64,000 bases of DNA from Candidatus Marinacidobacterales bacterium (GTDB lineage Bacteria; Acidobacteriota; Vicinamibacteria; Marinacidobacterales; DATDRI01), in assembly GCA_965226495.1 (NCBI GenBank), contig OZ245365.1:384001-448000 (forward strand). Direction: 5' to 3'. The notes beneath the pieces were generated by a model. That model had not been told where the DNA came from. It ran no database searches and worked only from the letters and a program-made list of their open reading frames with translations. Positions 13,158 through 60,201 of this stretch are shown piece by piece (positions within the stretch are counted from its first letter, which is position 1; every line of letters starts with the position of its first letter). The position numbers were made by a program, and so were the translations under genes.

Positions 13158-13232
13158 TGGGGCGTGGCCAAGCGGTAAGGCACCGGTCTTTGGAACCGGC
13201 ATTCGAAGGTTCGAATCCTTCCGCCCCAGCCA
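13158..13232 (+). tRNA. tRNA-Gln(TTG)
   Basis: Cloverleaf tggggcg...cgcccca-g-cca; anticodon arm ccggt-ctTTGga-accgg; GTTCGAATC T-loop. Confidence 0.97.
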
Positions 13233-25012: not shown

Positions 25013-25087
25013 GCTGGCGTAGCTCAGTGGTAGAGCAGCTGATTTGTAATCAGCGGGTCGGGGGTTCAAATCCCTTCGCCAGCTCCA
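25013..25087 (+). tRNA. tRNA-Thr(TGT)
   Basis: gctggcg...cgccagc-t-cca; anticodon arm gctga-ttTGTaa-tcagc. Confidence 0.96.
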
Positions 25088-25168
25088 GCTCGAGGCCTTA
25101 TTAAAGTGAAAATCCCCGACCCAACAGTATTAGCCCAAGGCCCGATTCACTCGCTACAGGGAACAGGC

Positions 25169-25255
25169 GGAGAGGTAGCGAAGCGGTCAAACGCTGCAGA
25201 CTGTAAATCTGCCGGCCTTAGGCCTTCGGAGGTTCGAATCCTCCCCTCTCCACCA
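25169..25255 (+). tRNA. tRNA-Tyr(GTA)
   Basis: ggagagg...cctctcc-a-cca; gcaga-ctGTAaa-tctgc; long variable arm. Confidence 0.96.
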
Positions 25256-25351
25256 GAACCTCCCGCCGGTGAGATTGGCGAGGATGGCGAGGATACCGAG
25301 ATTCGCCGAGATTGGCGAGGCCGGCGAAGGACCGGTGGATGGTGCCATCGT

Positions 25352-25427
25352 GCGGGAGTAGCTCAGTTGGTAGAGCATCAGCCTTCCAAGCTGAGGGTCG
25401 CGGGTCCGAATCCCGTCTCCCGCTCCA
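25352..25427 (+). tRNA. tRNA-Gly(TCC)
   Basis: gcgggag...ctcccgc-t-cca; tcagc-ctTCCaa-gctga; T-loop reads TCCGAAT. Confidence 0.94.
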
Positions 25428-25600
25428 TTGTCGAAGACTTCGGGCAAGGGCTGAGCCTGCTATTGGAAAGTTCGAACTGAAGTCTATTGATTTGAGGAAG
25501 CCGCTGAAACTGGCTGGCGAGGTCGTTTTCGGTGCATCCCACTGCAGAGTCCAGGGAATCTGGCTTCGAGTCGCAGAGGAATTGGAAGCAAGGAAATCGG

Positions 25601-25675
<75 letters not shown>

Positions 25676-27253: not shown

Positions 27254-27329
27254 AGGCCAGTAGCTCAATTGGTAGAGCACCGGTCTCCAAAACCGGGGGC
27301 TGGGGGTTCGAGTCCCTCCTGGCCTGCCA
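27254..27329 (+). tRNA. tRNA-Trp(CCA)
   Basis: aggccag...ctggcct-g-cca; ccggt-ctCCAaa-accgg. Confidence 0.96.
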
Positions 27330-27589: not shown

Positions 27590-28120
27590 ATGGCTAAACA
27601 GTGGTACATCGTCCACACCTACTCCGGATTCGAGAAGAAAGTGGCGGACAGCCTGAAACAAAGAGTTCAGGCCTTCGAGCTGGAAGACCAAATCGGTGAG
27701 GTTCTGATACCGACCGAGGACGTCGTCGAGATGAAGGGAGGCAAGAAGGTTGTTAGCGCCAAGAGGTTCTTCCCCGGATACGTGCTAGTGCAGATGGATA
27801 TGAACGATAACACCTGGCACGTGGTGAAGAACACTCCAAAAGTCACCGGCTTCGTGGGGGCCGGGCAAAGGCCCGCGCCTCTGAGCCAGGAAGAGGTGGA
27901 TCAAGTCATCAAGCAGGTCACGGTTGCGGCGGAAAAGCCGAAACCCAAGTACACCTTCGAGGCGGGTGAACCGGTGCGAATCATCGATGGTCCCTTCAGT
28001 AACTTTTCCGGCGTGGTCGATGAGGTGAACCTGGACCGAAATACATTGAAGGTCATGGTCACGATTTTCGGGCGCTCGACTCCGGTTGAGCTCGACTTTC
28101 TCCAAGTGGAGAAGACGTGA
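27590..28120 (+). CDS. nusG: Transcription elongation factor NusG
   Basis: [22 protein letters not shown] motif [18 protein letters not shown]. Confidence 0.98.
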
Positions 28121-28121
28121 G

Positions 28122-28222
28122 CAGCCCTGAGCCCGAGCGGAGCGCGAACGAAGTGAGTCGCGCAGCGAGTAGCGAGTGGGGGTGGGGCCCCGCGAGCGCT
28201 GATGACAGCCCTGAGCCCGAGC
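28122..28222 (+). repeat. Third family-A unit (84 bp) plus a partial fourth unit
   Basis: Near-identical to 3541-3625; followed by the partial unit cagccctgagcccgagc. Confidence 0.93.
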
Positions 28223-28245
28223 GCTAATGATTCAAGCGGACTAAT

Positions 28246-28668
28246 ATGAAAAAAATACTGGGGTTAATCAAACTTCACATACCGGCCGGTAAGGCAACGC
28301 CTGCACCTCCGGTTGGACCGGCGCTCGGGCAGCACGGCGTCAACATCATGGATTTCTGTAAGGCCTTCAACGCCAAGACGAACAAGCAGGAGGGGTTAAT
28401 CATTCCGGTGGTCATCACCGTCTTTCAGGATCGCTCCTATAGCTTCATCACCAAGACGCCGCCGGCCTCGGTGCTGTTGAAGCGGGCGGTCGGGATAGCC
28501 AAGGGCTCGGGCGAGCCGAATCGCAACAAGGTTGGAACGGTGACGCTCCGGCAGGTCGAAGAGATCGCGAAGACCAAGATGCCGGACCTCAACGCGAGCG
28601 ACATCGAAGCCGCTAAGAAGATCGTGATGGGGACGGCCCGCAGCATGGGCATAGAAGTAGAGCAGTAA
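28246..28668 (+). CDS. rplK: 50S ribosomal protein L11
   Basis: [42 protein letters not shown]. Confidence 0.99.
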
Positions 28669-28681
28669 TTGGACCGGAGCG

Positions 28682-28732
28682 CGTGTTGGCCGCCAAATCA
28701 CGTGGTGGCTTCGACTGGAGCTAGCCAGGCGG
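28682..28732 (-). repeat. Dispersed family-C copy (reverse orientation)
   Basis: Reverse complement ccgcctggctag...caccacgtgatttggcggccaacacg matches the array units (ccgtctggctag; ttggcggccaacacg). Confidence 0.7.
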
Positions 28733-28756
28733 GAGGGGTGGGGCCCCGAGGAGCAC

Positions 28757-28862
28757 TAACCGGCCCGAAGGGCCGGCGGCCAGGAGGAATTGGGTCATTG
28801 AAATGCGGTGCCCAAGGGAACCTGGCCGGGTTTTAGGCGCGAGCGAAGAGCGAGCGCCGCGC
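28757..28862 (+). repeat. Family-B structured element, copy 1
   Basis: Homologous to the reverse complement of 60099-60201, with compensatory changes in three stems. Confidence 0.85.
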
Positions 28863-28887
28863 GCACTAAGGAAAGACAAAACAAGAG

Positions 28888-29580
28888 ATGGCAGGCAAAG
28901 GCTACACCAAAGCAGCAGAAGCGGTCGGCGACAAACAGGACTTCACGCCGGAAGAAGCGATCGAGCTCATCAAGAAGGTGAAGTATACAAAGTTCGACGA
29001 GACCGTCGAGCTGGCGATGCGACTCGGCGTCGATCCTAAGCACGCAGATCAGATGGTGCGGGGCACTGTGGTGTTGCCGCACGGACTCGGTAGGACCCGG
29101 CGAGTCTTGGCCATCGCCTCCGGCGAGAAGGTCAAGGAAGCGGAAGATGCGGGAGCCGACCTGGTGGGCGGTGAGGACATGGTCGAGAAAATCTCTGGCG
29201 GCTTCATGGATTTCGAGGCCGTCGTAGCAACGCCGGACATGATGCGCAGTGTCGGGAAGCTGGGCAAAATCTTGGGCCCGCGAGGTCTGATGCCCAACCC
29301 CAAGACCGGTACGGTCACGTTCGACATTGGCAAGGCGGTGAAGGAAATCAAGGCCGGAAAGGTCGAGTTCCGCGTCGACAAGACCGCCATCATTCACGCA
29401 GCGGTGGGGAAAGTGTCTTTCTCCGATCAGAGCTTGTTGGAAAATCTGCAGGCTCTCGTCGACAGCGTAATGAGAGCGAAGCCGTCCGCGGCGAAGGGTA
29501 AGTACGTCAGGAGCATTGCTCTTTCTTCGACGATGGGCCCCGGGCTAAGAATCGACCCGCAAGCGCTCGGAATCAAGTAG
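28888..29580 (+). CDS. rplA: 50S ribosomal protein L1
   Basis: [44 protein letters not shown]. Confidence 0.99.
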
Positions 29581-29596
29581 GCCTAGGAGGATTTGG

Positions 29597-30115
29597 GTGA
29601 ATCGAACCGAAAAACTGGTAGCGGTCGAGCAGCTAAACAAGGACGTCGAAGCCCTCTCGGGCGTATTTGCCGTGGACTTTCGGGGATTGAAAGTGGAAGA
29701 AGCCACCGAGCTTCGCAGGAAGATCAGAGAGTCCGGCTCGAAATACCGCGTAGTCAAGAACACCCTTGCCCTTCGTTCTCTCAAGGGAACTTCGTTGGAG
29801 CCAATCCAGGTTCACCTAAAGGGGATGACCGCATTGGCTTACACCGAAGCCGATCCGGTGGCGCTGGCGAAGCTCCTAAACGACTTTGCGAAGGATGTGC
29901 CGGTACTGACGTTCAAGGGCGGGATGATCTTTGGCAAGGAAGTCACCCCGGAGGAATGTAAGCAACTGGCGTCGTTGCCCAGCCGAGAAGAGCTTTTGGC
30001 GCAGCTACTCTCGGTGCTGCTGGCGCCGATACAGAATTTCTTGGGAGTGCTGGAGGCTCCCGCCCGCGACCTCATTTTGGTTTTGAAGGCCGCGGGAGAT
30101 AAGCCCACGGAGTAA
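29597..30115 (+). CDS. rplJ: 50S ribosomal protein L10
   Basis: DFRGL.V, VVKNTL, LASLPSREELLA. Confidence 0.97.
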   Translation: MNRTEKLVAVEQLNKDVEALSGVFAVDFRGLKVEEATELRRKIRESGSKYRVVKNTLALRSLKGTSLEPIQVHLKGMTALAYTEADPVALAKLLNDFAKDVPVLTFKGGMIFGKEVTPEECKQLASLPSREELLAQLLSVLLAPIQNFLGVLEAPARDLILVLKAAGDKPTE

Positions 30116-53254: not shown

Positions 53255-53701
53255 ATGGGTTTGGAATCGCTGAAACCAGCTCGCGGAGCGGTGAAAAACA
53301 AAAAGAGGATTGGCCGTGGTCCCGGCTCCGGTTGGGGCAAGACGGCCGGCCGCGGCCACAAGGGCGCGAAGTCTCGCTCCGGCTACTCGAGACGCTACGG
53401 ATTCGAGGGAGGCCAGATGCCCCTTATCCGACGCCTCCCCAAGCGCGGTTTCGTCAACAACTTTGCCAAGGAGCTGGCTACGGTCAACGTTCGCGACCTG
53501 GAGCGATTCCCGGAAGGAACAGTCGTGACGCCTGAGCTTCTGCAGACCACCGGGCTCATCCGAAAGTTGGGCGATGGGCTCAAGGTATTGGGCGACGGTG
53601 AATTAAAGAAGAACCTCGTCGTTCAAGCTCATCGGTTCAGCGCCACTGCGATCGCCAAGATCGAAGCCGCCGGAGGTAGGGCGGAGGTTTTGCCTACGTG
53701 A
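53255..53701 (+). CDS. rplO: 50S ribosomal protein L15
   Basis: [41 protein letters not shown]. Confidence 0.99.
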
Positions 53702-59958: not shown

Positions 59959-60100
59959 CGGGGACCCCGCCACTGCCAGAAATCAATTAGTTGCCTGGGG
60001 CCCCACCCGCAGGTGTGATCTTGCCGGCATCTATCTCCGCTCGCGGGGACCCCACCCCCGCCAGAAATCAATTAGTCGCCTAGGGCCCCACCCCCAGGCG
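59954..60100 (-). repeat. Two ~62-bp direct repeats at 85-bp period carrying the family-A core
   Basis: gctcgcggggacccc...ccagaaatcaattagt.gcct.gggccccaccc starting at 59954 and 60039. Confidence 0.85.
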
Positions 60101-60201
60101 CGGCTCTCGCTCTTCGCTCGAGCCGAAAACCCGGCCAGGTTCCCTTGGCCGCTTGTTTCGTTTGCCAATTCCTCCTGGCCGACGGCCCTTACGGGCCGTT
60201 A
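60099..60201 (-). repeat. Family-B structured element, copy 2 (begins at the fusA-paralogue stop codon)
   Basis: Reverse complement: taacggcccgtaagggccgtcggccaggaggaattggc...gccaagggaacctggccgggttttcggctcgagcgaagagcgagagccgcg. Confidence 0.85.

Follow-up and report, generated by a model that had tools for sequence, protein, structure and literature searches.

We analyzed a structured element that occurs twice in a 64,000-nucleotide stretch of DNA (the window) from contig OZ245365.1 of a Candidatus Marinacidobacterales bacterium, whose genome is one contig of 6.34 Mb with 59% G+C. Copy 1 lies at 28757-28862 on the forward strand, between the ribosomal-protein genes rplK and rplA, and copy 2 is the reverse complement of 60099-60201, behind a gene for an EF-G-like GTPase. 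Given the size of the effect, and despite an overstated independence of the copies, there is little doubt that the structure of this element has been kept by compensatory change. Though itself undescribed, the element, which occurs in an uncultured Acidobacteriota group, belongs to a known kind. Probably it is a lineage-specific, non-autonomous, structured intergenic repeat carried in mRNAs, with a mosaic build like that of repetitive extragenic palindromic sequences (REPs) and bacterial interspersed mosaic elements (BIMEs). It is not a regulator specific to translation genes, and its tie to rplK and to the EF-G-like gene is coincidental.

The conserved fold of the element

Over aligned stretches of 141 bases, copy 1 and the reverse complement of copy 2 share a mean column identity of 83%, and RNAfold recovers the listed helices in both, with z-scores of -4.2 and -6.0 relative to dinucleotide shuffles. 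The core pattern (CGGCC NN GAGGAA ... GGGAA ... GGCCG) has two exact matches in the 64-kb window, where 100 shuffles give an expectation of 0. The two copies thus align and fold as the initial annotation had stated, and the stems that it listed are present in the sequence: stem 1 is C-CGGCCC/GGGCCG-G in copy 1 and A-CGGCCC/GGGCCG-T in copy 2; stem 2, CGGCCAGG/CCTGGCCG, occurs in both copies together with the AGGAA/GGGAA purine loop; stem 3 is TTGGG/CCCAA in one and TTGGC/GCCAA in the other; and stem 4 is GGCGC/GCGCC or GGCTC/GAGCC around GAGCGAAGAGCGA.

The full unit is longer than the ~105 nt originally proposed. It measures ~130 nt (129-136 nt in most rows) and contains five helices, P1 to P5. 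P5, a hairpin or tail, finishes in CA[CT]T[AG]A; this end falls at 28869 in copy 1 and at 60072 in copy 2. RNAalifold predicts these five helices from a MAFFT alignment of 26 full units (11 from the host genome and 15 from relatives), which holds the build that we call type 1 with a recognisable 3' end, the other build and the rows without a located end being left out. P1 is a GC hairpin whose sequence is free to vary (CGGCCC/GGGCCG, CGGGCC/GGCCCG, CGACCC/GGGTCG, GGCGCG/CGCGCC). In P2, the five outer pairs, CGGCC/GGCCG, are invariant, and the three inner pairs covary (GGG/CCC, AGG/CCU, GCG/(U)GC). Between P2 and P3 lies a 5x5 internal loop made entirely of purines, AGGAA opposite GGGAA. The terminal part of P3 varies in length; the GAAA that had been described as kept in its loop is frequent family-wide as YGAA, but it is not invariant. 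P2, the purine loop and P3 form what we call the B core. P4 consists of a covarying stem of 4-5 bp, a tandem GA/GA step, GC/GC and an invariant GAAGA loop. As stem 4 it had been counted as part of the element, and it is indeed present, but it is a separable module: its loop motif occurs in 36 copies in the genome, only 15 of which adjoin a core. P5 takes one of two forms, the family A hairpin GCGCG-UGGGGGUGGGGCCCC-GCGCGC or the hairpin GAGCGAGCC-GAGGA-GGCGAGCGA, which is partly held by tandem G.A pairs. The word CA[CT]T[AG]A follows P5 and is the 3' end of the unit in 51 of 56 rows, a count that is not independent because the ends were located with a pattern of our own making.

We label the host's own family f1, a sister family f2 and a third family f3. 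Copies of f1 carry a GGTTTTA linker, which is missing in the f2 type and is therefore not a required U-tract. In the f2 type, P1 is replaced by GCGAGC-GGA-GCGAGC, likewise a hairpin with tandem G.A pairs, and P3 often holds a nested hairpin; the order of the parts and the letters of the loop are unchanged. A K-turn has a 3-nt bulge followed by G.A and A.G pairs; checked by hand, the letters of the purine loop do not fit this rule, and a K-turn was rejected.

The pairing holds in two alignments. In the first, whose 63 rows were fitted to a covariance model (CM) and which therefore leans towards structure, 92.6% of the cells are paired, compared with 25-46% when partners are slid; both sides have changed in 167 cells, compared with 17-27 for slid partners; 14 of the 19 pairs show compensatory change; and none of 500 shuffles reaches the observed covariation score. 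The second is the MAFFT alignment of 26 units, which was not fitted to a structure, although the structure tested was derived from the same alignment. Here 95.9% of the cells are paired (25-45% with slid partners), double changes are found in 17 of 27 pairs, and all five helices contribute. Both sides have changed in all six pairs of helix 1 in the 63-row alignment and in four of five in the MAFFT alignment, where helix 4 is 100% paired with double changes in four of its six pairs. The letters of the purine loop are unchanged in 59-61 of 61 copies. These results support the earlier claim that the structure is under selection, with all stems staying paired through compensatory change; broken stems in further copies had been named as evidence to the contrary, and in the further copies the stems are retained.

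The fold is that of the sense strand. G.U outnumbers A.C by 50:12, or by 21:11 when a single pair that is always G.U or G-C is set aside. P4, P5 and the f2-type P1 contain tandem G.A pairs, steps that would turn into pyrimidine mismatches on the opposite strand. In 51 of 61 copies the sense strand gives the stabler fold, by a mean of 3.9 kcal/mol. In the window, RNAfold gives -59.1 kcal/mol for the sense and -52.9 kcal/mol for the antisense strand of copy 1, and -72.3 versus -62.3 kcal/mol for copy 2.

Distribution, placement and turnover

An iterated nhmmer search of the host genome, with the 86-nt B core as the search unit, finds 35 copies (~5 of them partial), and the CM built from the nhmmer copies (93 positions, 19 pairs) finds 34. 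CM matches occur in all seven other f1 genomes, which represent five genera and hold 2-17 matches each (six of six without the unpublished genome G007), and in 8 of 19 f2 genomes. None was found in 28 f3 genomes, in six genomes that represent the remaining families sampled from the class, or in a phylum-wide sample of 150 further genomes. G007 contributes to the f1 count, to two alignment rows (L039 and L054) and to a copy upstream of rplA; none of our conclusions depends on it. In metagenome contigs the core pattern occurs in at least 122 stretches, 80 of which gave 36 CM matches at 34 distinct loci, and the elements are of both f1 and f2 type. A phage origin was rejected, as none of the four pattern matches in viral contigs is real by CM (best score 12.7 bits). 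In a comparison of the window with Rfam 15, the gathering score is reached only by tRNAs, and eight loci searched at E<=10 gave only a tRNA and chance-level matches, none of them on the core; the element thus matches no family described in Rfam 15. In the literature that we searched, we found no description of this repeat family. The initial annotation had proposed that many random copies would indicate a mobile repeat, and restriction to translation genes a regulator. The 34-35 copies found are scattered beside unrelated housekeeping genes, and the outcome therefore points to a mobile repeat rather than to translation regulation.

Diverse housekeeping genes without a common theme flank the copies. 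Open reading frames (ORFs) were called crudely, and 82 flanking ORFs were checked against Pfam; besides L11/L1 and the EF-G-like GTPase with L17, they include AllG, an HTH/AHSA1 pair, ETF-QO, YqeC/MobA, two volactin paralogues, chorismate synthase with deformylase, thiolase with 3-hydroxyacyl-CoA dehydrogenase (3HCDH), IMPDH, Nramp, NqrA/NqrB, lipoamide dehydrogenase, Dxr/RseP, methylmalonyl-CoA mutase, COX2/COX1, aconitase, two amine oxidases and HlyD/AcrB. The copies lie between genes, many of them in apparent single operons (nqrA-nqrB, cox2-cox1, thiolase-3HCDH, HlyD-AcrB, dxr-rseP, rplK-rplA). Both window copies do lie 3' of translation genes, as had been noticed, but among the Pfam-checked flanks of the host genome these two loci are the only ones next to such genes, and the link hinted at, to translation genes and to binding of L1, L11 or L10-L12, is not supported: the rplK-rplA spacer lacks the element in the related genomes G001, G003 and G006 and in the sister families.

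Most copies are read in the direction of their neighbours. In a manual tally of 35 copies, 28 are in sense orientation and 3' of a co-oriented gene, three lie in divergent spacers and four are antisense to both neighbours. When the 5' core motif (37 matches) is counted automatically, co-directional spacers hold 17 in sense and 3 in antisense orientation, convergent spacers 10 and divergent spacers 3. The units are stacked head-to-tail, in one orientation, with sister modules A, C and D. Taken together, the four module types form 157 arrays, and strands are mixed in only 3 of the 80 arrays with several modules; 63 arrays in co-directional spacers are sense and 23 antisense (binomial p = 2e-5), and 33 arrays lie in convergent versus 15 in divergent spacers, against a background of 780 versus 780. 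Because the orientation is mostly sense, the units are presumably transcribed within host mRNAs. Metatranscriptome contigs (four runs, a small share of words) compared over 27900-29900 of the window include some exact, low-depth contigs of the organism. The B core shows no replichore bias, with 17 of 37 motifs on the leading strand and 53% of the genes leading.

Units are fitted closely to their spacers. Array-initial units start 0-15 nt past a stop codon in ~11 of ~16 cases, and twice an upstream ORF runs into the P1 loop before it stops: AllG-like and YqeC-like ORFs end there at TAA or TAG (G000:C1:1141432-1141450 and 1991506-1991525, both on the plus strand of the host genome). Here the stop codon is provided by the repeat itself, which REPs are also reported to do. 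The earlier claim that both window copies start at TAA is right for copy 2, whose P1 begins within the TAA stop codon (60201-60199) of the EF-G-like gene (a Pfam assignment), but not for copy 1, in which the TAA at 28757-28759 belongs to the CACTAA end of the preceding repeat module and the rplK stop codon lies ~90 nt upstream. At the other end, the terminal CA[CT]T[AG]A stands 3-25 nt ahead of the next start codon in most co-directional cases, in the host and in the sister family. With a start at a stop codon and an end near the next start codon, the arrays thus fill the spacer up to the next ribosome-binding region.

The content of a given spacer changes between relatives. In 19 relatives, two of which have an EF-G-like orthologue with 91% and 89% amino-acid identity, the region 3' of that gene holds no copy, and the closest of these relatives carries other hairpin modules at this place. 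In the rplK-rplA spacer, three congeneric genomes hold three different module sets directly past the rplK stop codon (E-A-B-P4-tail in the host, B-P4-A in G002, a 38-nt remnant in G001), with the same A-rich leader after each. G003 has only a P5-like hairpin there, G006 has no spacer (a TAATG overlap), and in five f2 and f3 genomes the spacer is short and without the element. In G005 a unit lies between nusG and rplK. The unpublished G007 (L133, G007:C462:1-3428) has an ABC-transporter gene and a B unit, not rplK, ahead of rplA, and this order reflects either genuine rearrangement or a fragmented assembly that was wrongly joined at the repeat. Assemblies do break at repeats: a G006 contig (L131, G006:C542) ends 159 nt upstream of rplA.

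In G002, 14 of 17 copies have both flanks mapping close together in the host genome, and of these 14 mapped spacers, five, and probably a sixth, hold a B copy in the host too. G001 has two copies, both at sites common to the host genome. In shared spacers the cores have diverged by paired changes, to about the extent seen between unrelated copies, and in four of five aligned non-shared spacers the host carries other modules (E-A or C-A) past the same stop codon. Because the cores at shared sites have diverged and modules are swapped at others, the occupancy of a spacer seems older than its content; the arrays seem to gain, lose or swap modules in the manner of BIMEs.

Likeness to known repeats and rival explanations

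Sections of PMC3733652 describe REPs as lying 3' of ORFs in unidirectional and convergent spacers, with G.T pairs, and as supplying stop codons. The element resembles REPs and BIMEs in its many dispersed intergenic copies, in its mosaic clusters of several module types, in its place 3' of ORFs near the stop codon (which it sometimes supplies) in unidirectional and convergent spacers, in the G.U (G.T) pairs of its stems and, presumably, in being carried on mRNA. REPs are defined, in sections of PMC3733652 and PMC6006769, by a GT[AG]G (or CGTC) foot tetranucleotide and a short palindrome of 20-40 bp. In contrast, alignments of 35-63 copies of the element show neither tag, and the units end in CA[CT]T[AG]A. 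The element is also longer, with five helices in fixed order; its modules stand head-to-tail on one strand and not as inverted pairs; and no RAYT gene is flanked by them, that is, there is no REPtron.

The Correia/NEMIS, ERIC, BOX and RUP repeats are structured repeats of 100-200 nt that resemble miniature inverted-repeat transposable elements (MITEs), lie by coding regions, are co-transcribed and form stable RNA folds. The element is similar to them in size class, gene adjacency and RNA folding, and its modular build recalls BOX (background in part from sections of PMC3733652). Unlike them, it has no terminal inverted repeats and no related transposase was identified; because its ends are not inverted, it is not a DDE-type MITE. 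Sections of PMC6006769 place class 3 TnpA(Y1) 'REPtron-like' systems in Acidobacteria and Planctomycetes and report that the phylum carries high-copy, atypical hairpin repeats. Like palindrome-associated IS200/IS605 elements and class 3 systems, the element has subterminal hairpins (P1 and P5), a conserved 3' word, a similar word in the 5' flank and a strand-specific build. In contrast to these systems, no Y1 gene adjoins it or co-varies with it, its modules are not accompanied by an IS200-type TnpA, the B core lacks a lagging-strand bias, and the CnGA foot given for class 3 in sections of PMC6006769 is not consistent.

Two ORFs of the genome match PF01797 (Y1_Tnp). An HUH-type ORF of 279 aa with an HYH motif, on the minus strand at G000:C1:1859779-1860618 (L125 1021-1860), has inverted GGGGTC(A/T)GATCC words on both sides that are unrelated to the A and B modules. 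With such words beside it, the ORF fits the TIRYT class, TIRYT proteins being described with GGGG[AT][CG]A[CG] flanks in sections of PMC6006769. The sole TnpB-type match (PF07282) in the genome lies on the minus strand at G000:C1:19304-19462, in an open frame of 128 aa, and is probably a remnant. A RAYT, IS200 or TnpB partner was rejected, as neither the Y1_Tnp ORFs nor the TnpB-like remnant stand beside modules. In a search for terminal inverted repeats, the 5' end and the reverse-complemented 3' end matched at a mean of 10.8 of 25 positions, compared with 9.6 in shuffles. TAA-like words, which might represent a target-site duplication, stand at both borders in some copies only, and by manual reading the 5' flank is stop-like (CTAA, CTAG or CTGA) in roughly 12 of 27 full copies. 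An integron attC site, with its two arms, unpaired spacer and variable tip, was rejected by eye: RYYYAAC/GTTRRRY boxes are lacking, and the surroundings of the copies are housekeeping operons. A small ORF within the element (GGAGGA then NTG, in the P3 loop) was likewise dismissed, its start codon not being conserved.

In the REP-like reading, the units would spread or be exchanged at the DNA level. Spread may proceed through a hairpin-recognising enzyme, perhaps a single-strand HUH enzyme with insertion 3' of a YTRA-like word, or alternatively by recombination between dispersed copies. HUH-type insertion 3' of a short word would fit because the flanks are stop-like, the unit ends in a similar word, the hairpins are subterminal, terminal inverted repeats are missing and the arrays keep to one strand; the end of each unit would then recreate the target for the next. 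Once in place, the element would be transcribed together with the host genes, and its stable mRNA helices may act, as REPs do, as 3'-end or intercistronic barriers to 3'-to-5' decay or as processing sites. The invariant CGGCC clamp and the purine loop form a putative docking site for a trans-acting factor, which might be the mobilising enzyme or an RNA-binding protein.

Several observations weigh against this reading. No mobilising enzyme was found: neither PF01797 ORF is flanked by repeat modules, and the distribution of homologues of the second of these ORFs, of 307 aa, does not match that of the element, since they occur in 2 of 7 f1 and 15 of 19 f2 genomes, and in all five genomes of an f2 genus without the element. 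The TnpB-like remnant has no A-D modules within several kb and is unrelated to them. Among the relatives compared there is no recent insertion with an intact empty site, and mobility is deduced from differing occupancy only, because no clean pair of empty and filled sites was caught; that ~40% of the G002 sites and both G001 sites are shared also fits old elements that decay slowly or are selected. Four of the 35 copies are antisense to both neighbours. The RNA contigs barely cover 28771-28904, and one exact contig (run X1) ends at 28753, just ahead of the B unit; contigs break at repeats. The shuffle and pairing statistics overstate the independence of the copies, which are related within and between genomes. 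REPs are described as species-specific in sections of PMC6006769; usually they are so, and without invariant internal loops, whereas the element has an invariant purine loop whose sequence is kept over two families. This conservation argues for a constraint beyond that on a plain exonuclease barrier. We hold it to be unlikely that the B core, with its clamp, purine loop and variable rod, is the folded single-strand docking site of a lineage-specific protein, and that the unit is a new kind of stop-codon-seeking module, stacking into head-to-tail arrays at operon junctions and kept for RNA-level operon control (insulation, processing or re-initiation).

The lack of terminal inverted repeats, the subterminal hairpins at both ends and the often stop-like 5' flank would also be found in a purely selfish DNA element, a possibility that we consider unlikely. 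In such an element, hairpins and purine loop would be recognised in single-stranded DNA by a transposase of the IS200/IS605 palindrome-associated transposable element (PATE) type, or by a transposase or recombinase of folded substrates, and the RNA fold would be a by-product; the enzyme, in the same tentative scheme, would insert 3' of a YTRA word such as the TAA stop codon. The CA[CT]T[AG]A end of 51 of 56 rows, with the non-independence of that count, agrees with this, as do the co-oriented head-to-tail arrays, which are expected if the unit end recreates the target, and the lagging-strand excess of module C (36 of 50). Tandem G.A pairs and GAA-type loops are stable in DNA too. However, the B core has no such bias, its orientation tracks transcription (17:3, and 63:23 over all modules), TAA is missing at many 5' junctions, and no cognate HUH gene lies beside the modules or co-varies with them. 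It is quite improbable that the element is instead a dedicated cis-acting RNA, in which the clamp and loop would dock a lineage-specific RNA-binding protein or nuclease and multiplication would be secondary to function; equally doubtful is that, at operon junctions, such a partner controls processing, decay or translation downstream. In favour of this explanation, neither the loop nor the outer P2 pairs vary over two families and in metagenomes, whereas the inner pairs covary; the fold is that of the sense strand; and units are found repeatedly at operon junctions, among them the nusG-rplK-rplA region of four genomes at non-identical positions. Moreover, the unit mostly ends 3-25 nt before the next start codon, often with no recognisable Shine-Dalgarno sequence between, but this proximity is expected anyway for a unit that lands past the stop codon in a short operon spacer. 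Against it, the neighbours have no common function, the module content at a given spacer is replaceable, and no partner was identified. CsrA, the obvious binder of GGA words such as those of the loop, was considered as the target of a sponge and rejected, PF02599 being found in none of 31 genomes, 27 of them at least 90% complete, with positive controls.

Two further explanations concern transcription and translation directly. It is very improbable that the element belongs to a family of terminators or attenuators, in which the P2/P3 rod followed by GGUUUU would end transcripts. A GC-rich rod does precede UUUU in f1 copies, and convergent spacers are occupied more often than divergent ones (33:15). 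The U run, however, is only 4 long, offset by 2-3 nt and missing in the f2 type, a simple scan for terminators gives no site in the element, and many copies stand within operons, whose essential downstream genes would be silenced if transcription ended there. The lack of a proper U-tract, the absence of the run in the f2 type and the many copies inside operons show that the element is not a terminator. An autoregulatory leader for L1 or L11, or another regulator of translation genes, is already contradicted and retains practically no probability. One copy does lie between rplK and rplA and one behind the EF-G-like gene, and copies are found in or near the nusG-rplK-rplA region of G002, G005 and G007; but 33 other copies adjoin unrelated genes, the rplK-rplA spacer is without the element in G001, G003, G006 and five f2 and f3 genomes, positions and flanks differ among the genomes that carry it, and it is absent 3' of the EF-G-like orthologue in 19 of 19 relatives. 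A leader of this kind would be expected as a single operon structure conserved in position, instead of the 34 CM copies found genome-wide.

The analysis records an undescribed repeat system of ~35 B cores and some 200 sister hairpins, in poorly known, uncultured Acidobacteriota of the Vicinamibacteria class, that fills the spacers of essential operons. For annotation, such units account for long intergenic stretches that seem 'empty', for contig breaks and for spurious small ORFs in genomes of this kind. The system goes beyond a typical REP in its loop, invariant over two families, in its strict module order and in its placement directly past the stop codon. The CGGCC/AGGAA/GGGAA site offers a handle for finding the enzyme or RNA-binding protein that recognises it, and the system lends itself to asking how an operon copes with, or exploits, 130-400 nt of structured RNA between its cistrons.

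The window copies and the sister modules

Copy 1 is directly preceded by a family A hairpin module, GGGAGGGGTGGGGCCCCGAGGAGCACTAA (28731-28759, plus strand, as are all the parts of copy 1), the last three bases of which are the TAA discussed above. The P1 hairpin, CCGGCCC-GAA-GGGCCGG, occupies 28760-28776 and is seen both in the RNAfold prediction and in the covariation of helix 1. The B core at 28777-28828 is located by pattern match, fold and a CM match of 91.9 bits; within it, P2 (CGGCCAGG/CCTGGCCG) pairs 28777-28784 with 28821-28828, AGGAA at 28785-28789 faces GGGAA at 28816-28820 in the all-purine loop, and P3 (TTGGG/CCCAA) pairs 28790-28794 with 28811-28815 around a variable terminal loop. 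The alignment places the linker GGTTTTA at 28829-28835. P4 (the former stem 4), with GGCGC, tandem GA/GA, GC/GC and the loop GAAGA, follows at 28836-28858 according to RNAfold and RNAalifold, and the 3' tail GCGCGCACTAA at 28859-28869 is a shortened P5 that ends the unit. The rplA start codon is at 28888, 18 nt past this end. Six tRNA genes are clustered upstream of nusG-rplK-rplA in the window (25013-25672; 27254-27326 and 13158-13229, both on the plus strand).

Copy 2 runs on the minus strand. Its P1 hairpin, A-CGGCCC-GTAA-GGGCCG-T, lies at 60182-60199 by sequence and RNAfold, and its B core, with P2, the AGGAA/GGGAA loop and P3 as TTGGC/GCCAA, at 60132-60181 by pattern match, fold and a CM match of 97.1 bits. 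The P4 hairpin (GGCTC, GA/GA, GC/GC, loop GAAGA, closed by GAGCC) is found at 60102-60124 in the sequence and by RNAalifold. P5 at 60072-60101, seen in the sequence and by RNAfold, is a hairpin of the family A type, GCGCCTGGGGGTGGGGCCCTAGGCGACTAA, and ends the unit. Beyond it, in the direction of the convergent L17 gene, stand two further A-type hairpins on the same strand, at ~60035-60062 and ~59985-60012.

The family A hairpin has the core motif GGGGTGGGGCCCC and ends in CA[CT]T[AG]A. With up to one mismatch allowed in the core motif, it has ~198 copies in the genome, far more than B; it usually follows module C, is always co-oriented with its neighbours, including the B core, and serves as P5 of many B units. 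In the second build of the unit in the host genome, module C (~55 nt) stands in place of P4 and is followed by one or two A hairpins. Module C, GAGCGCAGCCTTGAGCCGATGCG.AGTCGC....CGACGGAGCATCA.GCG, has ~50 copies and takes the place of P4 in half of the B units, with an A hairpin next; examples are at G000:C1 3803260-3803340 and 5767000-5767083, both on the minus strand. Its lagging-strand excess is the only replichore bias among the modules.

In f2-type units, the word UCCUCCCC, which is the 5' strand of P4, comes directly after P2 (loci L044-L051 and L059-L065; metagenome loci L198-L263). The same word is also complementary to GGGAGGA of the core, so that an alternative pairing that opens the purine loop is possible on paper. 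A further module, E, with the form GGCCGCCAAAT.ACG.GGT.GCTTCGAC..GAGCTAGCCAGGCGG, precedes the A hairpin ahead of copy 1 (window ~28696-28730, plus strand). It is also found on the minus strand at G000:C1 ~6193060-6193130 and ~53640-53700, and it recurs in G002 at a spacer that is without B in the host genome.

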